Below are positions 1,802-47,469 of a DNA stretch of 64,000 nucleotides, piece by piece (position 1 is the stretch's first letter; each line of letters begins with the position of its first letter). Source of the DNA: Verrucomicrobia bacterium UBA3841. GTDB lineage: Bacteria > Verrucomicrobiota > Kiritimatiellia > RFP12 > UBA1067. The position numbers and the translations under genes are program-made. The stretch is taken from the NCBI GenBank assembly GCA_002392765.1, contig DGHT01000014.1, positions 38,951-102,950 on the forward strand, given 5' to 3'. The notes beneath the pieces were generated by a model. The model was not told the DNA's origin. It worked only from the letters and a program-made list of their open reading frames with translations, and made no database searches.

Positions 1802-4189
1802 ATGTCTACATATACTTCTACAATTAAAGTTGCAGTTTTGACGGCAATGTTCGCGACAGTCCGGCTCTCAGCCGGAGCGGCGCTGAAGGTGACGACTGTT
1901 TCCCAAGTGACGAGACCTTATAGCTCCACGTATGGCGCGGAGCAGATAAGCGGCATCACTTATGCCGGAGGCGACCTATACTACGCCGTCGACGACAACG
2001 ATAAGAAATTATATCCGATCACGCTGAAGATCAACCGCGAAACTGGTTCGCTTGCGTCGGGGACAAACGGAATGGACATCGGGACAGGCGTTGTTATGTC
2101 CGGCGGCAATGACATGGAGGGATGCGCATTCGATCCGGCGTCCGGCAAGGTGTGGATTTCACAGGAGACGAGCGCGCTCATCCGCGAGTTCGATCCATCG
2201 AGTGGCGATCTTCTCCGCTCGGCTCCGGTTCCCGCCGTGCAAAAGCAGTATGCCGGGAACTACAGCCTTGAGGCGCTGACCATCTCCGGCGACGGAATGA
2301 CGATGTGGACTTGCAACGAAGAGGCGTTGAAGGTCGATGGAAATCTTGCTACGAACTCGGTCGGTTCCGTGGTGCGACTGACGCGGTTCACGCGCGAGTC
2401 GGTCTATGACAACTGGACGCCGAACGGTGAATGGGCGTATGAGACGCAGCCTATCGGATCTGTAAAAGATGAACACACACGAAGCGGAGCCTCTGGACTC
2501 TGTGCGCTGCCAGACGGCACTCTGCTTGTTCTTGAAAGGCGCTGCTACAACCCGGAGGGATGGTTCCCTGATTTTCAGGTTCGCATCTACCAGGTTGACT
2601 TCACAGGTGCAGACGACGTCTCGTCCATTGCGTCGCTTAAGACCGCCACATACAAGAAGGTGTCCAAGACGCAGCTGTGGGAATACCATCACGGCAGCGA
2701 TATGCCGAACTACGAGGGCATGTGCCTCGGGCCGAGCCTGAATGACGGTTCCTGCATGATCGTGCTTGTAAGCGACGGCGGTTCATACGCGGAGGAGGGA
2801 GTCTTCACGCTTAAGCTCTCTGGACTCAACATCCGCACCGTCAATTTCACGAAGCCCGGGGTTGGATCGTCGTCGATCGTCGGCGGACCCTATCGCTACA
2901 TGGACGGCACGAAAATCAGCCTGTCTGTAGCGGGCGCGGAATACGCGTCGGCGTACACGAACAACGCGGCGAGCTGCACAAACGTCGCGTGGAACCTGAC
3001 CGGAACGGCAAGCGGCCTTATGGATTGGGGTTCCGGCTCGTCGGCGTCGTTTACAGTCAACGAAGACTGCACCTTTTCGTGGGGCTTCAAGTCCAACGTC
3101 GCAGCGACACCGATTGATAACGCCGACAGTTTTGAAATCTATCCTGCCGGCGCGCTCGCATCCGACGGCGGGGTCGGAGCCTGGACCGGGGAGGCGGAAG
3201 TCGTCGCGGCGGATTACACGCCGCCGAATCCGCCCGGATTCCCGATGCCCAAGGACGCGCACACGAAAGTTCTCGATATCGAGGATTCGGCCTCGCGCGT
3301 ATTCTCCTGCACGACGAACGGAAACGATGTGCTCGATATGATGATCGCCGTCAACAGGCGCTCAGACGACGAGCCGCCGCTGGAACTGGATGGCAAAGAG
3401 AAAGTAGTCATCGTATGCGACACGGACGGCAGGCTGAAGCTTCTCTGCCGCGATGCGGACGGCAAGGAGGTCTGGGTCGCGCTTTCGGACACCGCATACC
3501 GGAACGGCGACTGGGTGAGGCTTTCGATTTCGCTCGACTCCACCGCGAAGCCCGGCGAGACATACGCGCTCGTGCGCATCAACGGCGAAGCATGTGTGAC
3601 GGACTTCGGCGTGCGCTCCCCGCTCGACGCGGCGAACCGCGGCGCATGGCACAGGACGCTTTCGGCGAACGGCGGCGGACGGATATGCGCGCTAGATCTG
3701 CGCGGCGCGCTCAAGGTGGACGATGTCATAAAGACGACCCAGGATTTCGAGACGGAGCTTTCGGCCGAGACAACGCAAATCGACGGCGTGAGCGTGGCCT
3801 GGCTGAAGTCCAAGGGGCTCGGTCTCAATCCCGAAGCGCCCGCGCCCGGCGCAAATCTGAGGAAGCTCGGCTATATTCTCGGCGACATATACGACGCCGG
3901 ACTCGACCCGGCGAAGGACGAGCCTTTCGACATCACGGGAATCAGAATCCTTGACGACGGGAGAATTGAAATTTCGTTCAACGGCGTACGCGAGGATCTC
4001 GGCAGGGATGCCCGCGCCGCTCTCTATCCCGTATACTGGATGGGAACGATCGGCGCGACGGAGTCGCCGGTAGAGGGGTCGACGGAGATTGCCGTGGACG
4101 GCGGCGTGAAGCGCACCGTCTGGACGAGCAAAGACCCGCTCACCGAAACGCAGGGCTTCTACCGAGTGAGGGTGAACAGCGGAAGATAG
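1802..4189 (+). CDS. Secreted protein with an N-terminal phytase-like esterase domain and a long unassigned C-terminal region
   Basis: ORF 1646..4189. I place the start at ATG 1802 (MSTYTSTIKVAVLTAMFATVRLSAGAA, a signal-like N-terminus); ATGs at 1766 and 1781 cannot be excluded. Segments GISGITYAGGDLYYAVDDNDKKLY, MEGCAFDP, NYSLEALTISGDG and SGASGLCALPDGTLLVLERRC resemble the 'esterase-like activity of phytase' family by eye. The C-terminal ~400 aa are unrecognised. Confidence 0.55.
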   Translation: MSTYTSTIKVAVLTAMFATVRLSAGAALKVTTVSQVTRPYSSTYGAEQISGITYAGGDLYYAVDDNDKKLYPITLKINRETGSLASGTNGMDIGTGVVMSGGNDMEGCAFDPASGKVWISQETSALIREFDPSSGDLLRSAPVPAVQKQYAGNYSLEALTISGDGMTMWTCNEEALKVDGNLATNSVGSVVRLTRFTRESVYDNWTPNGEWAYETQPIGSVKDEHTRSGASGLCALPDGTLLVLERRCYNPEGWFPDFQVRIYQVDFTGADDVSSIASLKTATYKKVSKTQLWEYHHGSDMPNYEGMCLGPSLNDGSCMIVLVSDGGSYAEEGVFTLKLSGLNIRTVNFTKPGVGSSSIVGGPYRYMDGTKISLSVAGAEYASAYTNNAASCTNVAWNLTGTASGLMDWGSGSSASFTVNEDCTFSWGFKSNVAATPIDNADSFEIYPAGALASDGGVGAWTGEAEVVAADYTPPNPPGFPMPKDAHTKVLDIEDSASRVFSCTTNGNDVLDMMIAVNRRSDDEPPLELDGKEKVVIVCDTDGRLKLLCRDADGKEVWVALSDTAYRNGDWVRLSISLDSTAKPGETYALVRINGEACVTDFGVRSPLDAANRGAWHRTLSANGGGRICALDLRGALKVDDVIKTTQDFETELSAETTQIDGVSVAWLKSKGLGLNPEAPAPGANLRKLGYILGDIYDAGLDPAKDEPFDITGIRILDDGRIEISFNGVREDLGRDARAALYPVYWMGTIGATESPVEGSTEIAVDGGVKRTVWTSKDPLTETQGFYRVRVNSGR

Positions 4190-37986: not shown

Positions 37987-40900
37987 TTAATAGGAGAACA
38001 GATTCACCGGATACGACTGCTTGTACTTGTACGTCTTCATCTTGCCGGTCTTGGGATCCTCGTAGACGCCTGCCTCGTCCCAGAGGTAGAATCCATCCAT
38101 TCTCGGTTCCTCGCCCTGAACGAAAATGCCCTCGAACGAGACTTTCTTCTTCGTCTTGGCGTCGAACACGAACGTATAGCCGCCCTTGAAGATGCCTGTC
38201 GCCTGCGTGAAGGAGAGCGTCAGCCCGCTTGACTTGTCGATGACCGGCTTGCCCTTCGCGTCGATTGCGATTTCGACTTCGCCGCCGTTCTGCGGCTCGA
38301 CGCCGTTCAGGGTCGGCAGATCGGCGGAGAACTTGAGCGCATCATAGTAGTCGTTCAGCGACTTCGTCTTGTTGTAATACGCGCCGATAAGATCGACCTC
38401 GCGAGCAAACCCTTCGCCATACTCTCCCGTCGCCTGCGGATTGCGGCTCGTCCACTGCGCCGGCCCGCTTGGTAGGGTCACGCGTCCCGCGTGACCATCA
38501 AACCCGGCCGCCGCCGCGAACGAGCCACCCTTGTATGCAGACGGCGCCGCGTACAGCATCGCGAACCACCCCATATCCTCGTCGTACAACAGCGGCGACG
38601 TCGCACTCACACCAGTACCGTCCGCGAGCTTTCCGCTCGCCTTGACATTGCCGTCCTTCCCGACCGTCAGCGAGAGGTATCCGCCATCTTCCACCGCCAC
38701 CGTATACACGCCCTCGAACCCGGCGAGCACCGTCTTCGCCTCGGCCGCCATCGACTTGTCTTTCCACATATTCCGCCACATCTTCACATCTCCCTCGCCG
38801 AACGTCCCTTCAGCCACCGCATTCGGTAGGGCGCGATCACCGAGCGCGCCGCCCGTCCCGCCGCCGTCGCACGCCGCCACCTCCAACACCACCGGCATCG
38901 TAAACTTCCCCGCCTTCGCGACCGCCTCTACGATGAAACATTCTTCGCCGCCGTTATGGTAGGGCGCGATGACCCCAGCGCGCCGCACCGCTGCGTAACT
39001 CGCCGCGCTGAACGTCCAATTCGTCCCCCCTATCGTGATCTTACCGCTCACCTTCCCATTCGCCGCGACCGTCATCGTCGCCGAACCGAATGACTCCACC
39101 TCTTCCAACTTTACATTTTCCATTTTACACTTTACACTTCCCGTAAACGTTCCCGTCGCCCACGTCGGCAACACTTCCGTCGTCAGCGTAATCGTAGCGA
39201 TCTCCTTCTCTTTGCCCCTTGTCGCCGTGAACGTCACCGTAAACGTCCCCGCCTTTGTCGGAACGCCTGTTATCTTGCCCGTCTTCGCGTCGTACTTGAG
39301 TCCGGACGGTAGGCCGGCGACCTTCAGCGTCCAACCCTCGCCGATTATCGCTTTCGCGACATCCGGTAGGGTCACGCGTCCCGCGTGACCGCCGTCGCCA
39401 TCGATCACCGCCGCGCCGCCTTCAGGCGTCACCCCGGCCCAAAACACGTACTTTCCATCCGTCACCAATCCCGCCGCTTCGAACATAGGCGTGGTGAAAT
39501 TCGGCACGACGATCTCGAACTCGGCCGTGACCGGCTTCTTCACCGTCGCGTTCGTCGCGCTCACCGTCACCTTGTACACGCCAGGCTTCGTCGCCATGCC
39601 GGAAATCCTCATTGTCTTGGCGTCGAACTTCAGGCCGGAAGGAAGGCCCTTTACCGCGGCCGTGACATACGACCACGAATCATCCGTCACATAGACATCG
39701 GACAGCGTCTCATTCGGGGCGAATTCCGTCTGCGTGATGCCGAGCGTGTGAAAACCGTCGTCGTCTGCCATAATGAACACCGCCGTCACCATATTCGCCG
39801 CGAATCCTTCCGGCACGACGAACGCGAAGGACGGGTTGCGCCGCTCGTTCTTCGCGAGGTTCAGCGAATCGACAAGCGGGCCTTCCCAGTGCGCGAACAC
39901 GCTGCCCTTGTCGGATGTCGCCTTCCACGTCACCTTCTGCCCCACCTTCCATGTCTTCGGCACCGTCACCTTGCCAGTTCCGGGACGCTTCGTCTTAATC
40001 ACCTGCTCCGTGCCGTCGCCGTTGAACACGCCAACGCCCTCTTCCACGTCAAGCTTCACGCCTGTCGCGGCGTCTTCCGCAACCTCGATTCCCGCGCTCT
40101 CGCCTCCGCCGGAAATCTGCCCCTTCTCGCCCTCCGACGTATCGACAATCGCCAGCCGCGTCGCATCGCCCTCGCCATCACCCTTCACAATCCGTATTGC
40201 AGGCCCCGGTAGGGCGGTCACCCCGTGACCGCCGTCCCCCACCATATTGTGCCCATTCAAGTCAATCGTCACCGCACCCACGTTATCCGGAATCTCCACC
40301 GTCCCGCTCACGTCGTTCGTGAGGGTGACGACCATAGTGCCGTTCTCATCAAACGAGACCTGCGCAATGCCATCAAACAAACCTCCATAACACCACCAAT
40401 GAGCATAATACGTGACGTCCTTTTCGCCCATCAGCGTTTTATCTGAGATTTGTGAACCTCCCTCGCTCTCCGTGAACCAGCCAAGGAACTTGAACTGATT
40501 TCTCTGAACTTCCGGCAGCAACCCGATTGCCCGCCCCTCTTCAATGGCGCGATAACTCCAATCGCCATCCGCGAAGTTAGGATCGAAGCACACTTCATGC
40601 ACCGGCCGCGGGGATTCATAGTATGTTATCTTCAACGATTCAGGGCACTTCGCAAATACAGAATCTGGGATTTTGCCCTTAAGGGCATCAGGCAACTGAA
40701 CGCTCTTCAAGCCTCGGCAATCGTAGAACGCCTCCTCGCCGATGTATTTTACCGATGTCGAGACAAAGACATTCGTCAAGTCATCGCAAAGCGCAAACGC
40801 CCGCGAGCCGATGGCCGTGACACCATCGCCGATCACAAGACTTGTCACTCCCACAAGACCTGGGTCCGTGTTTGCGCACCCAGCGTATTCACCGTGTCCA

Positions 40901-43900
40901 TGACCAGCAAATGCCCTGTCGGCAATTCCCCTGATGCCTTGTTCGCCAGATATCACGTAAGTGCCATCAAACGAATCGTCCCCGGTAAGTTGCGAAGAGA
41001 CACCGACATCCTGCAAAATCCAACCGTCCACGATTTCAATTCCTGGAATGGATTCTTTATCTATGAAGCTACATCCCTGAAAGACGCTTTGCCCAACCGT
41101 GCGCACACTGTCGGGGATTGACACGCCCGATAAGTTTTGGCAACCGGAAAAAGCAGCCCCCTCGATTTCTTCCACACCCTCGGGGATGACAACCCATTCC
41201 AATTGTGAACAACCATAGAAAAGACTTCCTCCCACATACTTGACGCATGACGGAAGCGTCAAGTAGCGCAGCCAACTGCAGCCCTCAAATGCCCGACATG
41301 CTATGCCCCTGATGCGAGCATCTTGAAGAGCCAGGTTCAGATATTCCGTAGGATCGTCGTATTCGTATTGCATCCTGCGGGGGCTGTCGAGCCCAACTAC
41401 CCATCCATCAACAAGCAGAAGCCCAGGAATCGAATCGGCGTCAAACACATCATTCTCGTTGTCGACATCCGGAGGCGGCTCGCAAGCGCCTCTGCTGCTG
41501 CTCTTCCCATAGCTTCCAAACGCATCCGCATGAATACGCGTCACGCTGTCAGGAATAGATATCGACGACAGCTTGCACCCTTCAAAGGCTCGAGCTCCAA
41601 TAGACTCCAGTCCATTCGGCAGAACCAAACTCGTCAACGAGCAGTCTCTAAAAGCACACCCCCCTATCTTCGTTAGTGACTGCGGCAACTTGACACTAGA
41701 CAAAGCGGTGCAATAACTGAATGCATAATCTCCAATTTCCGCGACTCCCTCTGGGATGACTATGGATGTCAACTGACTGAATCCGCCAAACGCATCCCCT
41801 CCGATTCGCATGGTATCTGCAGGTATCGTTATCGTCATCTGTGATTTAAGCGCGGTGGGAACGCAGAGAAGCTCCTTGCCGTTCTTTGTTAGCAGCATCC
41901 CGTTTGCGTCGAAGAACGACTTACTATCCTTTTCAACGCTAAACGATTTGAGTTTCGTACAGTATTCAAAATCCTCCGGATCAACATACGTGACGCTCGC
42001 GGGAATCGTCACGCTCGTCAGTCCGCGAGGCACTTCATAAATCTCCGTTCCATCAGCCGACAACAGCAGTCCGTTCGTCGATGAATACACCTTGTTCCCG
42101 GCAGCAACCTTTATGGATGTAAGTTTGTATGGCCCGCTTGATTCGTCGACATCGTCGTCTTCGTCGTCGGAATACAACTCGCCGTCATAATCTTTCAGGC
42201 TTTTAGGAAATGTGACGGACGTCAGCTTCGAACAACCGACGAAAGCTGAATAAGAAAGCCACTGTACACCTTCGGGAACATTTACGCTCGTCAGCGACTG
42301 CGGCACGGCTTTGAGATACAAGTCCCCGTCGTCCATGCCAAGCAAAAGTCCGTTGACAGACTTGTAGTATTGATTTCCGGGCGCAACCGTAATCGTTTTG
42401 AGCGCGGGGCATCCATGGAACTTATCGTACCAGTCGTCATCGTCGTCTATTTCTTCCCATCCGCCGAACACGCTTCCTTCATCGCCAATCTCCTCGACGC
42501 TACTTGGGAATGTCACACTCGTCAGCTTTGCGCATCCCGCGAAGAAGCCGTTCCGCACACTTGACACCCCTTCTGGTATCTTGACAGATGTCGCCGTCCT
42601 CGACGCCGCCACGAGCTCTGTGTTGTCCGCAGACACAAGCAACCCGCCAGCGTATTTGTAGTTCCTGTTCCCGCTCGCAAGGCTGATGGATGAAATCCTG
42701 TAGCATTCGTCAAATGCGCTGACATCTATGCGCGTCACGCTTGCCGGGATGGATATACTTGTCAGATTCGAACATTCCTCAAATGAATAGGCACCTATGC
42801 TTTTCACTCCTTCGCCGATTGTAATGCCCGTCAATGCTTCGCAATAGCTAAACGCGCCGTTCGCAATCCCGCGATAACCGCTCAACGTAAAGTTTTTGGG
42901 CAAGTCGTCCTCGTCACAACCAAGCACCCAACCATCGATGGATTTCACGCCATTGCGCCAGGTGAAATTGAGGTTTGGGCAATTATTGAACGTTTCACGC
43001 CCAATTTCCGTGACAGCGTCTGGAATTGACACCCAAATTCTTCCACGAGGCACCGCAACAATCTCCTTGCCGTCTTTTGTCAGAAGCAGCCCGCCGGAGA
43101 ATTTGTAGTTTGCATTCCCTGGCGCAACTGTGATTTCCGACAGGGCAGGACAACTGTATCGGAAGACGCTTTCGCCGATTCTTGTAACACTCGCAGGGAT
43201 GGATAAGCTCGTTAACCCGTCGCATTTGTAGAAACCAAAGTCAATAGTCTCCACCCCATCGGCTATCGCCAGTGACGTTATGGTTTTACAAGAATCTCCA
43301 AACACGCTAGACATATTGGAAAGTACACATTCCGGCACGGTAACGCGCCGGATGTTCCCGCAAGCTCCGAAAGCATAACTGCTAACACTTGTCACCGATG
43401 CCGGGATTACGACTTCTCTCAACCCATTGCATCCGTAGAATGCATTGTAGCCTATCGACTCCAATCCACTGGCAAGTTCAAGGTTCGAAAGCGAACTACA
43501 TCCGTAAAACGCATTGGAACCAATAGACTTCACGCTGAACGGAATCGAGACAGACGAGAGCGAGACGCAGCTATAGAAAGCGTAAGAGTCGATTGATTTA
43601 ACCGTGACGGGAAGATCAAGTGTTCTCAGGCTTGTGCATCCGTAAAATGCATTGTATGGAATCGCAGTGATACTGACTGGAATCGACACAGATTCAAGAC
43701 CAGTGCAGTTCTGGAATGCGCCATCACCGAGAGTTTTCACGCTGACGGGCATCGCAACATTCCGAAGTCCGCTACAGCCGTAAAACGCATAAGACCCGAT
43801 GCTCGTTACAGAACTCGGAATAGATACGCCAGTCAAACTGCTACAGCCGTAAAACGCTGAATTACGGACTTTCGTAACTGGACTACCGCCAAGTGTAGAT

Positions 43901-44061
43901 GGAATTGTCACAGTGCCCGTGGCTGGCTCGACGCCAGCGACTTCTGCACCGCTGCCATAGTTCCAATACGTCCACGTGTAGCCGCCGACCGTTTCCGTCT
44001 CGGCCCATGCGCCGAACGACACGGCAACTGCCGCAAACATCATCATCAGTTTCTTTGTCAT
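37987..44061 (-). CDS. Giant (2024 aa) secreted BspA-type leucine-rich-repeat surface protein
   Basis: Signal peptide MTKKLMMMFAAVAVSFGAWA and a GGYTWTY motif, then dozens of ~23-25 aa LRR_5-type units (IPxSVTxIGxxAFxxCxxLxSV). These are followed by a Listeria-Bacteroides repeat (FLGWFTESEGGSQI), putative-Ig units (GLPSGLKFDAKTMRISGMATKPGVYKVTV) and a C-terminal module resembling that of 59273..63373. Confidence 0.85.
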   Translation of the reverse strand: MTKKLMMMFAAVAVSFGAWAETETVGGYTWTYWNYGSGAEVAGVEPATGTVTIPSTLGGSPVTKVRNSAFYGCSSLTGVSIPSSVTSIGSYAFYGCSGLRNVAMPVSVKTLGDGAFQNCTGLESVSIPVSITAIPYNAFYGCTSLRTLDLPVTVKSIDSYAFYSCVSLSSVSIPFSVKSIGSNAFYGCSSLSNLELASGLESIGYNAFYGCNGLREVVIPASVTSVSSYAFGACGNIRRVTVPECVLSNMSSVFGDSCKTITSLAIADGVETIDFGFYKCDGLTSLSIPASVTRIGESVFRYSCPALSEITVAPGNANYKFSGGLLLTKDGKEIVAVPRGRIWVSIPDAVTEIGRETFNNCPNLNFTWRNGVKSIDGWVLGCDEDDLPKNFTLSGYRGIANGAFSYCEALTGITIGEGVKSIGAYSFEECSNLTSISIPASVTRIDVSAFDECYRISSISLASGNRNYKYAGGLLVSADNTELVAASRTATSVKIPEGVSSVRNGFFAGCAKLTSVTFPSSVEEIGDEGSVFGGWEEIDDDDDWYDKFHGCPALKTITVAPGNQYYKSVNGLLLGMDDGDLYLKAVPQSLTSVNVPEGVQWLSYSAFVGCSKLTSVTFPKSLKDYDGELYSDDEDDDVDESSGPYKLTSIKVAAGNKVYSSTNGLLLSADGTEIYEVPRGLTSVTIPASVTYVDPEDFEYCTKLKSFSVEKDSKSFFDANGMLLTKNGKELLCVPTALKSQMTITIPADTMRIGGDAFGGFSQLTSIVIPEGVAEIGDYAFSYCTALSSVKLPQSLTKIGGCAFRDCSLTSLVLPNGLESIGARAFEGCKLSSISIPDSVTRIHADAFGSYGKSSSRGACEPPPDVDNENDVFDADSIPGLLLVDGWVVGLDSPRRMQYEYDDPTEYLNLALQDARIRGIACRAFEGCSWLRYLTLPSCVKYVGGSLFYGCSQLEWVVIPEGVEEIEGAAFSGCQNLSGVSIPDSVRTVGQSVFQGCSFIDKESIPGIEIVDGWILQDVGVSSQLTGDDSFDGTYVISGEQGIRGIADRAFAGHGHGEYAGCANTDPGLVGVTSLVIGDGVTAIGSRAFALCDDLTNVFVSTSVKYIGEEAFYDCRGLKSVQLPDALKGKIPDSVFAKCPESLKITYYESPRPVHEVCFDPNFADGDWSYRAIEEGRAIGLLPEVQRNQFKFLGWFTESEGGSQISDKTLMGEKDVTYYAHWWCYGGLFDGIAQVSFDENGTMVVTLTNDVSGTVEIPDNVGAVTIDLNGHNMVGDGGHGVTALPGPAIRIVKGDGEGDATRLAIVDTSEGEKGQISGGGESAGIEVAEDAATGVKLDVEEGVGVFNGDGTEQVIKTKRPGTGKVTVPKTWKVGQKVTWKATSDKGSVFAHWEGPLVDSLNLAKNERRNPSFAFVVPEGFAANMVTAVFIMADDDGFHTLGITQTEFAPNETLSDVYVTDDSWSYVTAAVKGLPSGLKFDAKTMRISGMATKPGVYKVTVSATNATVKKPVTAEFEIVVPNFTTPMFEAAGLVTDGKYVFWAGVTPEGGAAVIDGDGGHAGRVTLPDVAKAIIGEGWTLKVAGLPSGLKYDAKTGKITGVPTKAGTFTVTFTATRGKEKEIATITLTTEVLPTWATGTFTGSVKCKMENVKLEEVESFGSATMTVAANGKVSGKITIGGTNWTFSAASYAAVRRAGVIAPYHNGGEECFIVEAVAKAGKFTMPVVLEVAACDGGGTGGALGDRALPNAVAEGTFGEGDVKMWRNMWKDKSMAAEAKTVLAGFEGVYTVAVEDGGYLSLTVGKDGNVKASGKLADGTGVSATSPLLYDEDMGWFAMLYAAPSAYKGGSFAAAAGFDGHAGRVTLPSGPAQWTSRNPQATGEYGEGFAREVDLIGAYYNKTKSLNDYYDALKFSADLPTLNGVEPQNGGEVEIAIDAKGKPVIDKSSGLTLSFTQATGIFKGGYTFVFDAKTKKKVSFEGIFVQGEEPRMDGFYLWDEAGVYEDPKTGKMKTYKYKQSYPVNLFSY
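38471..38496 (+). repeat. GTAGGG-headed REP-like hairpin inside the LRR CDS (copy 1)
   Basis: GGTAGGG-TCACGCG-TCC-CGCGTGA-CC. The perfect palindrome GGTCACGCG/CGCGTGACC is read on the coding strand as GHAGRVTLP. Confidence 0.75.
38825..38850 (+). repeat. GTAGGG-headed REP-like hairpin inside the LRR CDS (copy 2)
   Basis: GGTAGGGCGCGATCACCGAGCGCGCC (arms GGCGCG/CGCGCC). It shares its first 17 nt, apart from one position, with the intergenic copy at 44093..44119. Translated as ..GDRALP.. Confidence 0.65.
39365..39390 (+). repeat. GTAGGG-headed REP-like hairpin inside the LRR CDS (copy 3)
   Basis: Identical 26-mer to copy 1 (GGTAGGGTCACGCGTCCCGCGTGACC), again translated as GHAGRVTLP. Confidence 0.75.
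40208..40230 (+). repeat. GTAGGG-headed REP-like hairpin inside the LRR CDS (copy 4, shorter stem)
   Basis: GGTAGGGC-GGTCAC-CCC-GTGACC, translated as GHGVTALP. Confidence 0.55.
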
Positions 44062-44092
44062 TTCAGCGTTCCCTTCAAATCGTTTTCCTTAC

Positions 44093-44119
44093 GGCGCGAT
44101 GGGGTCATCGCGCCCTACC
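44093..44119 (-). repeat. GTAGGG-headed REP-like hairpin between the AlbA_2 stop and the LRR start
   Basis: Minus strand reads GGTAGGG-CGCGATG-ACCC-CATCGCG-CC. It lies 9 nt after the AlbA_2 stop and about 32 nt before the LRR ATG. Confidence 0.7.
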
Positions 44120-44127
44120 GTTCCGCC

Positions 44128-45705
44128 TCATTTCACGACCTCCCAATGGCCGGTCTGCTTGTTGCCCTCACGACGGATAACTCCCTTTTGCACAAGTGTA
44201 CCAATCGCCGTGTTGATGGTATCTTTATTGAGGCCAAGTTTGGCCACCATCCCTCGATAGGTAAGAAACGCATCTTGCCTCAAAGCTTCATAAACTTGAC
44301 GACATGATGACGGCAAATCAGACCATGCAATTGGTCGGGTCTTGGCCGGATCTTGGTCGGGTCTTGGTCGGGTCTTGGTCGGGTCTTGGTCGGGTCTTGG
44401 GCCGATTTGGGACACTTTTGGGGCACCTTGGGCCGATTCTTGGGCACTCTTGGGCCGATTGGCCGTGCTTTGGCCTGAATCCGTGTAAACAGTAACCTTG
44501 ACCCGGTCAGGATCGTATTCCTCCGAGATGACAGGTTCAGGAAGGCCGTGTTTCTTCCAGTGCCCATATAGATCGGCAAGGCCCATGCCGGAGCGTTCGC
44601 CAATGTCGACGAGGGCGAAGATGTTGAAGATGTGCGAATTGCGTGCATCGCTGGTCCCGCCCTCAACGGCAACCGCCTTGTTGACGCGGAATACGCCAGG
44701 ATTGGAGAAGCTGATCGTCTCCGCCTGTTTCTCGATAACGATGCCGCGGCGACCATGATAGTCTGCATGGATAAGCGCGTTCGCCAGCAACTCACGCAGA
44801 GATTTGTGTATCTCGTTCTCCTCCACGCGCAGGCCCTCGGAATCTATCTCAAACGGCACCTTTACATGCGAGGTGATGCGATCATAGACCATCAGGTAGA
44901 AGTCGTAGATGTTGCCGCTCCACGTCGCGTCATGCGCGGCGACGCGATCCGTCCAGCGCGTATCGGTGGAAAGTCTTTCGCGATAGTCGAGAAAGAAATC
45001 TGGAAGGATATCCATGATCTGTCCGAACTCGGCAAAGCATACAAGTCCGGCGAGATTGGGATGCACCTTGCCGTCCTCGCCGCGTCTTGCAGCGCGAATG
45101 CGCACAAGGAATTCCTCATCAGGCAAATCGTTCCAGATGTGCCCAGGTTTCTTGGACTTGAACCGATTGCGATAGCTACGGATGGTTTTGGAGCACAAAT
45201 CGTCTACCGTCAACTCGTCAAGCAGACATGCATCGGCCGTCTCAACGCAGGCATCCCGCAACATGGCCTTCACAGACTCGCGCGGGCAGTGATAATCTCC
45301 CTCGCCATTGCGCCGAAAACTGCCGCTGAACATGTCCTTTCCGATGTAAACAGGGCGATCCTGGCGATCCGCCCGCGGCACATCTATCACGACCACATCG
45401 CGACCTCGGCATTTCACAGAATAGACGTGCCGATCGAAGAGGATATTGACGCTGACCTTCTCGCGATTGTTGACGCAATCCCAAAAACGCTTGATCAACG
45501 CTGTAGCATTGGACACGCCGACAATCGAAAACTTGCCGCCAACCTCCTTCACGCCAAGAACAATCACGCCGCCGTCAGTGTTGGCGAACGCGCTATACGA
45601 CTCCCAGAGGGAATCGGGCAGCCCGCCGGATGCATCCTTGCATTCGGTATGGACCACCTCGCCCTGCTTTACAAGCCGCTCAATCTGTTTCGTTGTAAGT
45701 TTCAT
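44128..45705 (-). CDS. Schlafen/AlbA_2-domain protein with HATPase_c_4-like core and C-terminal winged-helix (COG2865-type putative regulator/defence-associated protein)
   Basis: 525 aa. N-terminal ..[36 protein letters not shown] (AlbA_2), central [31 protein letters not shown], a repeat-encoded linker [23 protein letters not shown], and a C-terminal wHTH (..[23 protein letters not shown]). Confidence 0.8.
   Translation of the reverse strand: [525 protein letters not shown]
44331..44462. repeat. 11-bp tandem repeat (CAAGACCCGAC on the coding strand, about 7 units) plus degenerate CTTGGGCCGATT repeats, in the AlbA_2 interdomain linker
   Basis: ttggtcgggt cttggccggat (cttggtcgggt)x4 cttgggccgat.., then cttgggccgatt recurs at about 44427 and 44449. 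Three units (33 nt) encode [11 protein letters not shown]. Confidence 0.85.
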
Positions 45706-45728: not shown

Positions 45729-45891
45729 AAATCTCCGCCGTGTCGCCACTGATTTGGCACGTCCACGTGTAGCCGCCAATCGTTTCCGTCGCGACCAGCA
45801 CGCCAAACGCGGCGGCAAGCGCCGCCAACAACGCCAGATTGCGGACGGCTCGGCGAGCCGTCCCTACTAGTATCGTCAGTTTCTTGGTCAT
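45721..45891 (-). pseudogene. 5' fragment (56 codons) of a second BspA-type LRR gene, truncated at the AlbA_2 junction
   Basis: MTKKLTILVGTARRAVRNLALLAALAAAFGVLVATETIGGYTWTCQISGDTAEILV* parallels the N-terminus of the 2024-aa protein (MTKKL..ETETVGGYTWTY). The 5' leaders are also homologous (AAGGAAA..TTGAARGGAAC..ATG). Confidence 0.7.
45843..45867 (-). repeat. GTAGGG-headed REP-like hairpin inside the signal-peptide region of the LRR fragment
   Basis: Minus strand reads GTAG-GGACGGCTCG-C-CGAGCCGTCC (10-nt arms). It is translated as ..VGTARRAVR.. and coincides with a 13-aa length excess over the full-length paralog's signal peptide. Confidence 0.65.
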
Positions 45892-45926: not shown

Positions 45927-46359
45927 GGCGGCTCGGCAGGACGCCTCGCCCTACCAATGACACTATCTACACGTTCTACATGTTCTACACGGCTAAAACG
46001 ATCCCTCCCGGCGCGGCTGGAATCCGCGCCCTACCAATGCGGTCGCGCGGGAGCACACGCTTGCGCGCGCACCCGCTTGCGCGCGCACCCGCTTGCGCGC
46101 CCTTCGGGTTGCTTTCAGCAAGGTTCCCTCCGAAGCGGAGCTTCTCCGGTGCATCTTCGGGTTCGGCTTACGCCGAATGTTCCCTCCGAAGCGGAGCTTC
46201 TCCGGTGCATTTCGCGACCCTACCGTTTTGACGCGGCGGGACGCCGCATCTCCTTGGCGGTCACGCGGGACGCGCGACCCTATCGTTTTGACGCGGCGGG
46301 ACGCCTCATCTCCTTGGCGGTCGCGCGGGACGCGCGACCCTACCGTTTTGACGCGGCGG
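45927..46359. repeat. Intergenic repeat mosaic: REP-like hairpins and four different tandem repeats
   Basis: REP-like elements at 45927..45955 and 46010..46035, both ending CGCCCTACCAATG on the plus strand. 9-bp YGTTCTACA x3 at 45963..45989. 16-bp CACCCGCTTGCGCGCG x3 at 46054..46101. 32-bp GTTCCCTCCGAAGCGGAGCTTCTCCGGTGCAT x2 at 46123..46210. Exact 60-bp period x2.4 at 46213..46359, each unit carrying a GTAGGG hairpin (46259..46284 and 46319..46344). Confidence 0.85.
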
Positions 46360-47011
46360 TTCTGCGTTCCACCCCTTCGCGCGGTTCGCACTCCGGCGGT
46401 ATCCTCAGCGGCTCCAGGGGGGAGTCGTCCGCCGGAAGAGCCTGCCACGCGGCGGAATAGACGCTCATGCCGCGCTCGCGGAATTTAGTCTCGAACTCCG
46501 TCCACACTTCTCTCGGCCTCGGCATGGGGTCGACGCGCAGGAAGCGCGGATCGGACGAAAAGCATTCCTCCACCGTCCCGAAATACTCCGCGTGGTCTGT
46601 CGCGAACTCGATCCTGCCGCCGATCTCCAGCCGCTTCCAGAGCGCATTGAGAAACAGCGGCCCGAAGAGTCTGTGCGAATGATGTCTCTTCTTGGGCCAC
46701 GGATCCGGAAAGAACACGTACACCCGCCTCGCTCCGTGCTCCGGCAGCAGATAGTGGAATACGTAAAGCGCTTCGAGCCTCACGATCTTCACGTTGTCGA
46801 GCCCCGCGCGCCTTACTTTGTTCGCGAAAAGCCTTACGCGGCCGAGCATTCTTTCTATGCCCAGAAAAGCGCAGTCGCGGTTCGCCGCCGCGCGGGCGGT
46901 CAGAAACGACCCTTTGCCGGAACCGACTTCGACTTCGAGAGGGGAAGGGAGGTCGAACGGCTTGCAGATGTCGGCCACCCGTATCACAGGGTCTATATCT
47001 TGAAGAAGCAT
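46340..47011 (-). CDS. trmB: tRNA (guanine-N7)-methyltransferase
   Basis: ORF 46340..47224 is over-extended. ATG 47011 gives MLLQDIDPVIR..EVGSGKGSFL..FFPDPWPKKRHHSHRLF. The stop TAG lies inside the last CCCTACC of the 60-bp repeat. Confidence 0.85.
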   Translation of the reverse strand: MLLQDIDPVIRVADICKPFDLPSPLEVEVGSGKGSFLTARAAANRDCAFLGIERMLGRVRLFANKVRRAGLDNVKIVRLEALYVFHYLLPEHGARRVYVFFPDPWPKKRHHSHRLFGPLFLNALWKRLEIGGRIEFATDHAEYFGTVEECFSSDPRFLRVDPMPRPREVWTEFETKFRERGMSVYSAAWQALPADDSPLEPLRIPPECEPREGVERRTAASKR

Positions 47012-47469
47012 AGGTATATCGTCCAGTTGATGCAAAGCGAATAAAGATTCGCCGCGAAATCGTCGATCACTATTCCAAGTCCGCCGTCGATCGACTGGAG
47101 CTGGCGCGCCGGCGGCGGCTTGACTATATCCACAAGGCGCACCACCGCGAAGAAAACGAGAACCGCCTTCCAGGAAAGCGCCGCAAGCGGCAGACCGGCG
47201 ACGGCGAGAGGGAAAAGCATCCACTCGTCGGCGGTTATTCTTCCGTCGTCCTTGATGCCGAGAGTTTTCTCGGCCGACGAGCAGACGGGCACCGCCAGCG
47301 CGGCGAGCGCGAGCGCCGCCGCGATCTGGACGGAAAGCGGGAAGCGCGACAGGACGAGCGCGAGCGCGACCCCGGGCAGGCTTCCGAATGTCCCGGGAGC
47401 GAACGGGACGAACAGTCCGATACCGAATCCAGTAGCGGTGAAAAGCAGGAATTTTCTGAAAAAGCCCAT
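46993..47469 (-). CDS. pgpA: Phosphatidylglycerophosphatase A
   Basis: Start at ATG 47469 (MGFFRKFLLFTATGFGIGL..APGTFGSLPG..VDIVKPPP), 158 aa. ATGA overlap with tsaB and 19-nt overlap with trmB. Confidence 0.8.
   Translation of the reverse strand: MGFFRKFLLFTATGFGIGLFVPFAPGTFGSLPGVALALVLSRFPLSVQIAAALALAALAVPVCSSAEKTLGIKDDGRITADEWMLFPLAVAGLPLAALSWKAVLVFFAVVRLVDIVKPPPARQLQSIDGGLGIVIDDFAANLYSLCINWTIYLCFFKI

Follow-up and report, generated by a model that had tools for sequence, protein, structure and literature searches.

REP-type palindromes read in frame within a large surface-protein gene of Verrucomicrobia bacterium UBA3841

Repetitive extragenic palindromes (REPs) tagged with GTAG have been catalogued across prokaryotes, the Planctomycetes-Verrucomicrobia-Chlamydiae (PVC) superphylum included (Di Nocera et al. 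2013, PMC3733652). REPs lying wholly inside open reading frames (ORFs) are described there, the verrucomicrobium Opitutus terrae having more such GTAG copies than any other species, and the hosts of intragenic REPs include helicases and repair proteins (PMC3733652). The same study describes REP dimers 1-2 bp apart, heads mutated to GTGG and genes of the REP-associated tyrosine transposase (RAYT) flanked by REPs, and it relates intragenic REPs to the in-frame palindromic elements of Rickettsia. We analyzed 64,000 nucleotides of contig DGHT01000014.1 from Verrucomicrobia bacterium UBA3841 (hereafter, the window), which contain a large gene for a leucine-rich repeat (LRR) surface protein with five GGTAGGG-headed hairpins, E1 to E5, inside its coding sequence. 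These hairpins belong to a REP family that has intergenic members in the same window and is dispersed in related genomes. A preliminary description of this DNA had regarded the hairpins as REPs, on the premise that REPs normally lie outside genes. The architecture of a GTAG head followed by a palindrome is present, whereas the supposed rarity of in-frame REPs was overstated, since intragenic GTAG REPs are documented (PMC3733652).

The host gene and the five intragenic elements are given below, with the residues (aa) of the host protein that each element encodes.

37987..44061, minus strand: host gene, an intact ORF of 2024 codons encoding 2024 aa
38471..38496, head on the plus strand: E1, GGTAGGGTCACGCGTCCCGCGTGACC, perfect 9-bp stem and 3-nt loop; read as GHAGRVTLP, aa 1856-1864
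38825..38850, head on the plus strand: E2, GGTAGGGCGCGATCACCGAGCGCGCC, imperfect and decayed; read as GALGDRALP, aa 1738-1746
38958..38984, head on the plus strand: E3, GGTAGGGCGCGATGACCCCAGCGCGCC; read in a different frame as RRAGVIAPY, aa 1693-1701
39365..39390, head on the plus strand: E4, GGTAGGGTCACGCGTCCCGCGTGACC, the same 26-mer as E1; read as GHAGRVTLP, aa 1558-1566
40208..40233, head on the plus strand: E5, GGTAGGGCGGTCACCCCGTGACCGCC, perfect 9-bp stem; read as GGHGVTALP, aa 1277-1285

Each element consists of a GGTAGGG head, the final GG of which starts a 9-bp G+C-rich stem, and a loop of 3-4 nt that is usually TCC; the total length is about 26 nt. As the preliminary description had stated, all elements have one orientation. 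They are antisense to the host gene, with the GGTAGGG head on the plus, non-coding strand. The two identical 26-mers with a perfect 9-bp stem and a 3-nt loop (38471-38496 and 39365-39390) were confirmed; they are direct repeats read in a common frame, at a distance of 894 nt (298 codons). The stem of E3 has one mismatch relative to an intergenic copy at 44093-44119. Stop codons occur in just one of the six reading frames of the element. The four elements reported earlier are all present at their coordinates, whereas the fifth copy, E3 (38958-38984), had been overlooked. Similarly, the common reading (T/A)LP is correct for E1, E2, E4 and E5 but not for E3, which reads RRAGVIAPY in the other frame. 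Folding of the sense RNA, which had been proposed as a check, predicted stable, perfect stems for E1, E4 and E5 (-15.8 to -19.7 kcal/mol, z -2.1 to -3.7) and degraded structures for E2 and E3 (z about -0.8 to -1.0; E2, z = -0.8).

In the Pfam analysis, the host protein possesses a signal peptide, eight BspA-type LRR_5 stretches, Flg_new (Listeria-Bacteroides repeat) and two He_PIG domains. Its C-terminus, the last ~800 residues, is a conserved beta-rich module common to many Kiritimatiellae surface proteins. This module is present in at least 375 proteins of a large protein database, some of them labelled Kiritimatiellae, and is found behind varied N-terminal domains (LRR, metalloprotease and others). 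The elements are located at aa 1277-1864 of 2024, in agreement with the earlier statement that they are confined to the high-GC C-terminal part. The GC content is 60-62% in the C-terminal module (38000-41000) and in most of the window, and 50-52% in the LRR-encoding N-terminal two thirds of the gene (41000-44000). The closest ortholog among the matches listed, L055 (RUG12478), shows 89% nucleotide identity across the LRR part, and its C-terminal half is rearranged or mosaic relative to the host gene; the C-terminal halves of orthologs are mosaic. Because of the GC contrast, and because L055 shares the LRR part and has a mosaic C-terminal half, the comparison suggests that the N- and C-terminal parts of the host gene were joined by modular recombination. 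We considered whether the host ORF might be a pseudogene or might remain untranslated in its C-terminal part, and rejected both ideas: the frame is uninterrupted, more than 100 homologues conserve the module, and the structure model is confident over the last ~300 residues.

The number of headed hairpins was compared with the chance expectation. GGTAGGG occurs ten times in the window against 2.7 expected, and none of 100 shuffled sequences reached ten. GTAGGG with a stem of at least 8 bp starting at the GG of the head was found nine times against 0.04 expected, the maximum in 300 first-order Markov simulations being 1. Perfect hairpins of at least 8 bp number only 12 in the entire window, and REP elements account for six. 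A chance origin of the headed hairpins is excluded. The window holds 9-12 REP copies, and all of them fall at 38.4-46.4 kb, within 8 kb of the 64 kb. The copies outside the host gene are the following.

44093..44119, minus strand: intergenic REP, perfect 9-bp stem and 4-nt loop, 32 nt upstream of the host ATG
45843..45867, minus strand: REP in a short paralogous fragment, GTAGGGACGGCTCGCCGAGCCGTCC
45930..45955, minus strand: intergenic REP of the GGTAGGGCGAGGCGTCCTGCCGAGCC subfamily, which is found beside RAYT genes of related genomes
46010..46035, minus strand: intergenic REP, GGTAGGGCGCGGATTCCAGCCGCGCC, 9-bp stem with one mismatch
46213..46359, minus strand: REP array, 2.5 tandem 60-nt units downstream of trmB

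The copy at 44093-44119 lies in the 5' leader of the host gene, where its head is on the sense strand; E3 matches it with 96% identity (aligned span 44092-44119). Each 60-nt unit of the array is composed of a REP of the E1/E4 subfamily and a second hairpin. The array contains GGTAGGGTCGCGCGTCCCGCGCGACC at 46319-46344, a copy headed GATAGGG at 46259-46284, and a truncated head at 46218-46224; the first two are 93% identical to E1/E4 (aligned spans 46316-46345 and 46256-46285). The five intragenic and six neighbouring copies all possess a head with an adjoining palindrome, and the head is GGTAGGG in all of them save one GATAGGG and one AGTAGGG.

The short fragment is an ORF from ~45892 to 45720 on the minus strand (MTKKLTILVGTARRAVRN...ETIGGYTWT...); it is truncated, and paralogous to the signal peptide and the first residues of the host gene. 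It aligns with the 5' end of the host gene except for a 39-nt in-frame, REP-containing insert in the signal peptide. Its upstream region is also homologous to that of the host gene, and each of the two has a REP ~30-55 nt upstream of the ATG. The fragment appears to be what is left of the start of a surface-protein gene that was duplicated or recombined.

To define the family, GGTAGGGNCRCGCGTCCCGCGYGNCC was scanned against one genome per species; the counts are lower bounds. At least 146 copies were detected in at least 118 8-kb blocks of gut and rumen Kiritimatiellae-type metagenome-assembled genomes, with at least roughly 8-11 copies per genome for one subfamily. The motif is far commoner than expected from composition, contrary to one of the two refuting results that the preliminary description had named. 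Tail-to-tail dimers, 2 nt apart, were observed in L006, L010, L049, L078, L079, L099 and L113. The inverted dimers and clusters that characterize REPs are therefore present, both as these pairs and as the cluster with the 60-nt array at 45.9-46.4 kb of the window.

The tally of coding and intergenic copies and of strand bias that the preliminary description had proposed was made on these related genomes. Among the at least 146 listed copies, 79 fall within ORFs of 250 codons or more and 22 are clearly intergenic, the other 45 being ambiguous. We applied a strict coding test, which demanded a G+C content at third codon positions (GC3) above 0.68, GC1 > GC2, and a location at least 40 codons from the 5' boundary of the ORF and at least 15 from the stop. 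By this test, 41 listed copies lie deep within coding sequence, so that at least 28% are in frame inside genes. Antisense copies number 26 and sense copies 15 in this set, and all five stop-free frames are used. The hosts include a DEAD/MrfA helicase, a UvrD-like helicase-nuclease, a GH20 hexosaminidase, a DUF5107-TPR protein and a glucuronyl esterase. With only 22 of the copies clearly intergenic, the family is not predominantly extragenic. However, this departure from an extragenic location does not exclude membership among REPs as the term is now used, since it is documented for the O. terrae REPs as well (PMC3733652).

The same copies bear on whether the elements might instead encode a protein motif, G-x-x-G-x-x-T/A-L-P, that is conserved in the C-terminal module, the DNA palindromy being incidental. 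Four of the five copies do end in (T/A)LP, and like peptides recur at the same loops in many homologues. If so, GHAGRVTLP might be encoded elsewhere by other codons; the homologues of other genomes use the exact 26 nt, with zero synonymous changes. L001 and L002, from other metagenomes and with ~50-66% protein identity, contain eight headed hairpins, all inside homologous genes, and five of the eight are the identical 26-mer. At the E1 site of L039 and L001, the 26-mer is identical in 26 of 26 nt, although the flanks are only 83-86% identical, that is, they differ by 14-17% between genomes. The E1-site loop of L108 carries a different REP in another (PPY) frame. Furthermore, the same DNA is found between genes, in another frame (E3) and in five frames of unrelated proteins, and the segments are absent from most homologues and are placed in coil, mainly of low confidence, in the structure model. 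The shared codons, together with the copies that lie between genes or are read in other frames, already refute the protein-motif reading at the level of sequence, and we leave it practically no probability. Because of the intergenic siblings, the frame of E3, the identical 26-mers and the dispersed family, we conclude that the elements are a DNA repeat and not a protein motif. The 26/26-nt conservation, the extra frame and the intergenic siblings bear out the view of the preliminary description that a DNA element lies in frame here.

The positions of the elements in the protein were compared with homologues in local BLASTP windows against 120 homologues and in a 31-sequence alignment. By both methods, each element lies between conserved blocks, within an indel-rich stretch. 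E4 is present only in P0006 among 30 aligned homologues; 27 are gapped at this site and two have unrelated residues. E5 is cleanly absent in P0012, P0015, P0077, P0078, P0088 and P0096, and E3 is common to only three homologues. At the loops of E1 and E2, other proteins have either nothing or other REP-type peptides (GGFVETALP, GLGETALP, AGRPPYR, ARDARPY), and the REP-type peptides at the same loop sometimes sit in another frame. Thus, the alignment with homologous LRR genes that had been called for showed segments that are missing or replaced at indel-rich loops. An AlphaFold2 model of residues 1230-2024 had a mean predicted local distance difference test (pLDDT) score of 75.9, with values above 90 over most of the final 300 residues. 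E5, E4, E3 and E2 lie in or overlap coil segments of pLDDT below 50 (45-56, 318-334, 467-476 and 504-514, respectively), and E1 forms a loop between short strands. In the model, all five elements are placed in coil or surface loops outside the protein core. The alignments and the structure model back the earlier suggestion of tolerated insertions into loops. As with the Rickettsia elements, the ORF is intact, the frame is kept, and there are homologues without the element at the site.

At the E5 site, L055 has GGCGGTCTCGGGGAGACCGCCCTACC where the window has GGCGGTCACGGGGTGACCGCCCTACC. The difference is a compensatory pair, CAC...GTG to CTC...GAG, which retains the 9-bp stem and alters two residues (GHGVT to GLGET). 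On the sequences compared, the change would reflect either constraint on the stem or replacement of the copy by another family member. Both are DNA-level processes.

A RAYT homologue was found in the clade. The block L083 (RUG572), which contains a copy of the 26-mer, also encodes a 147-aa protein that matches the NCBIfam model NF047646, 'REP-associated tyrosine transposase' (E = 4e-18, 65.7 bits). This protein aligns in full length with PDB 4ER8 (E. coli TnpArep; E = 1.4e-5), with the HUH and YIxxNPV motifs in register, and has 67 database homologues, several of which carry PF01797 or are named RayT. No Pfam match was obtained with the full 425-aa stop-to-stop ORF around it. The RAYT genes in L083, L121, L123 and L124 are bracketed by inverted arrays of GGT[GA]GGGCGAGGCGTCCCGCCGAGCC and GGT[AG]GGGCGAACCCTCCGGGTGAGCC. 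The GGT[GA]GGGCGAGGCGTCCCGCCGAGCC subfamily has the head and the central GCGTCCCGC in common with E1/E4, and is represented in the window at 45930-45955. Beside four further RAYT genes, a strict search for headed hairpins gave none; an inverted-repeat search showed that their flanks consist of a subfamily with non-Watson-Crick stem positions. Judged by this organization, the clade has REPtron-like loci. The RAYT link proposed in the preliminary description is supported at the level of the clade, where the homologues are flanked by sister REPs, and for this genome it would be an extrapolation.

The RAYT genes of the clade are mostly on very short contigs (L083:1377-2654; L121, L123 and L124, around 3000-3800), since assembly breaks off in the repeat arrays on either side. 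Gene calling carries the RAYT ORFs on into these REP arrays, so that products of 160-257 aa are called for a core of ~150 aa.

Taking these results together, we consider it likely that a REP family kept by a RAYT acting on single-stranded hairpins seeded copies into the host gene. E1 to E5 would have come there as members of the REP family of gut and rumen Kiritimatiellae. By analogy with described systems, such a RAYT, a HUH/Y1 transposase working on the single-stranded form of the hairpin, probably makes and maintains the copies, and we infer that it also mobilized these particular ones. The copies would have entered in lengths and frames that leave the reading frame open. The survivors would be stop-free insertions of a multiple of three in loops of the C-terminal module that tolerate extra residues. 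On this account, the elements would be passengers, copies of a selfish or domesticated DNA repeat that happen to be translated, rather than a designed protein motif, and presumably have no function of their own in the host gene. The intact E1, E4 and E5 may be young or maintained, and E2 and E3 appear to be decaying.

Several observations weigh against this explanation. A search for the HUH/Y1 motif pair in the 64-kb window gave none, and there is no RAYT gene there. The L083 protein scores under the curated cut-off of NF047646 (65.7 against 80 bits), and its trimmed 147-aa form matches Pfam Y1_Tnp weakly (E = 0.11). At the loci examined, the RAYT-flanking REPs are a sister subfamily and not the E1/E4 26-mer itself. 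No recent presence/absence polymorphism was seen between near-identical strains, so that mobility is deduced from the distribution only. Copies in this gene family are nearly all antisense (19:2 in homologues and 5:0 here), against 26:15 for genic copies generally. The host gene has five copies in 1.8 kb, and the other genes of the window have none except the short paralogous fragment. This density and antisense bias are not obviously explained by random insertion and passive tolerance alone. In addition, the perfect 26-mer between diverged flanks could mean a function in the gene instead of a passenger. Candidate explanations for density and orientation are inheritance with gene conversion among paralogous modules, a cis function, or a better-tolerated reading; for the last, the Gly/Pro-rich ..LP peptide may suit secreted loops more than the Arg-rich sense readings.

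The first candidate states that, within the gene family, the copies spread mainly by homologous recombination or gene conversion among paralogous C-terminal modules after one or a few initial insertions, and less by new insertions each time. E1 and E4 are shared with orthologous sites of some homologues (P0006/L001, L039), the family is large and modular, its module following LRR, metalloprotease and further kinds of N-terminal domain, and inheritance with conversion would yield the uniform antisense orientation. However, differing REP variants and frames occur in one loop, such as the PPY frame of L108 at the E1 site, and P0006 has GTRDACPYQ in another loop. Since variants at the same loop are in different frames, independent events or replacement are needed. 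We regard spread mainly by conversion as possible, although doubtful. It modifies the seeding of REP copies into the host gene by a RAYT and does not replace it.

The cis function would make the hairpins selected elements of the gene family, either recombination sites that vary the surface protein or structures for mRNA decay or translation pausing. An exchange between E1 and E4 would delete exactly 298 codons. Clustering of the copies, similarly loaded C-terminal modules of homologues, an overall antisense bias of 24:2, the perfect 26-mer, the stem-retaining compensatory change, the mosaic ortholog halves and the stable stems (-15.8 to -19.7 kcal/mol) are all in line with such a role. On the other hand, the same elements are found in housekeeping genes and intergenic DNA and hence are not family-specific, two of the five copies are decaying, and RAYT recognition or palindrome-templated repair would conserve the stem equally. 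Rearrangement was looked for in Logan contigs of four gut-metagenome runs over 38000-41000, where assembled contigs break at repeats; one run, X1, contains 92% of the words sampled from this sequence. No deleted or rearranged form was demonstrated. Apparent joints between copies had just 21-50 nt on one side and were therefore rejected as derived from other repeat-bearing loci. The contig depth at REP copies showed 5-20x spikes. Because the predicted stems are stable, a role of mRNA structure in the sense transcript is possible; as a whole, selection for a cis function seems unlikely to us.

A related reading takes the REPs as generators of surface-protein diversity, captured in one orientation in the module loops and co-opted as variation cassettes. 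Stem-preserving templated mutation, replacement of elements and REP-to-REP recombination would then produce coupled residue changes and in-frame deletions or swaps, such as the 298 codons between E1 and E4. We would give this reading only a slender chance.

A second multi-copy element lies in frame in the host gene. It is an AT-rich segment of ~32 nt at 39106-39138, inside DNA of 60% GC, and is coded on the minus strand at aa ~1650-1662 (SVKCKMENVKLEE; coding strand AGTGTAAAGTGTAAAATGGAAAATGTAAAG). The contig depth at this segment is ~675 against a baseline of ~50, and metagenome contigs end at its borders. GTGTAAA-type repeats like it were found in L018, L074 and L029. At the corresponding loop, some homologues have related peptides (SVKCRVESGELEEE) and others have a REP.

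Other repeats were observed around the REP cluster. The trmB-like ORF (46340..47224, minus strand; Methyltransf_4) takes its stop codon from the TAG of a REP head GGTAGGG (46340-46342), and its final ~17 codons overlap a third, partial 60-nt array unit (region 46213-46392). The REP-cluster region 45966-46210 contains an intergenic 16-nt tandem repeat, GCACCCGCTTGCGCGC, in three copies at 46053-46100. An intergenic 9-nt repeat, TCTACACGT, occurs in ~3 copies at 45966-45991, and a 35-nt direct repeat with a hairpin occurs at 46120-46154 and 46176-46210, its copies starting 56 nt apart. Within the minus-strand ORF 44128..45705, positions 44331-44400 hold 6.4 repeats of an 11-nt unit, TTGGTCGGGTC, with 93% matches. 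The repeat encodes PRPDQDPTKTRPRPDQDPAKTRP in the stretch that links the HATPase_c_4 domain to the winged helix of a Schlafen/AlbA_2-type protein. As 11 is not divisible by three, gain or loss of units would alter the reading frame ahead of the helix-turn-helix (HTH) domain; thus, a slipped-strand on/off or truncation switch is possible.

These findings have some practical and evolutionary consequences. Judged from the distribution of the copies, a REP/RAYT-type system would be active or recently active in uncultured gut and rumen Kiritimatiellae, and a large share of its copies is predicted to be translated within ordinary proteins. For annotation, recurrent peptides of these proteomes such as GHAGRVTLP, GLGETALP and ARDARPY derive from the repeat and do not represent domains. 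For assembly, REP copies are points at which contigs break. For evolution, the locus is an unusually clear case of selfish DNA adding loop residues, with a compensatory stem change in coding sequence. In a literature search, we found no paper describing intragenic REPs in Kiritimatiellae.

Compared with the REP/REPIN-RAYT systems of E. coli and Pseudomonas (4ER8; PMC2817692; PMC8266576), the elements have the GTAG head, the imperfect palindrome and the inverted doublets in common. A single small HUH/Y1 gene between inverted REPs is also shared, and the clade RAYT aligns with 4ER8. In contrast, the E. coli and Pseudomonas REPs are almost wholly extragenic and number hundreds per genome, whereas here at least 28% are in frame inside genes and the copy number of a subfamily appears modest, at least ~10 per genome having been counted. 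The Rickettsia palindromic elements (RPEs; Ogata et al. 2000, as cited in PMC3733652) are, in that account, likewise short, palindromic and in frame in genes that stay functional, at positions thought to be surface-exposed and tolerant. As cited there, however, RPE-1 is ~100-150 bp, RPE-4 and RPE-6 are of types tagged with CGTC and not GTAG, the elements are without an associated RAYT, and their hosts are reduced intracellular genomes.

The closest likeness is with the O. terrae REPs. By description, GTAG-17 to GTAG-20 of that species resemble the elements reported here in that a GTAG(GG) head directly adjoins a G+C-rich stem of 6-9 bp, which is closed by a short loop. The dimers 1-2 bp apart (tail-to-tail or head-to-head), the GTGG heads and the copies within ORFs, including helicase and repair genes, are common to both, and so are a host from the PVC superphylum and the association with REP-flanked RAYT genes. 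Unlike in O. terrae, the stems here are TCACGCG-TCC-CGCGTGA and relatives, the hosts are uncultured gut and rumen Kiritimatiellae, and five copies sit in one gene, in loops of one module, with a strong orientation bias. The present case fits the description in PMC3733652 point by point, and the stem sequences and the host clade are new. What goes beyond that description is only the concentration and uniform orientation of the elements in one surface-protein module.

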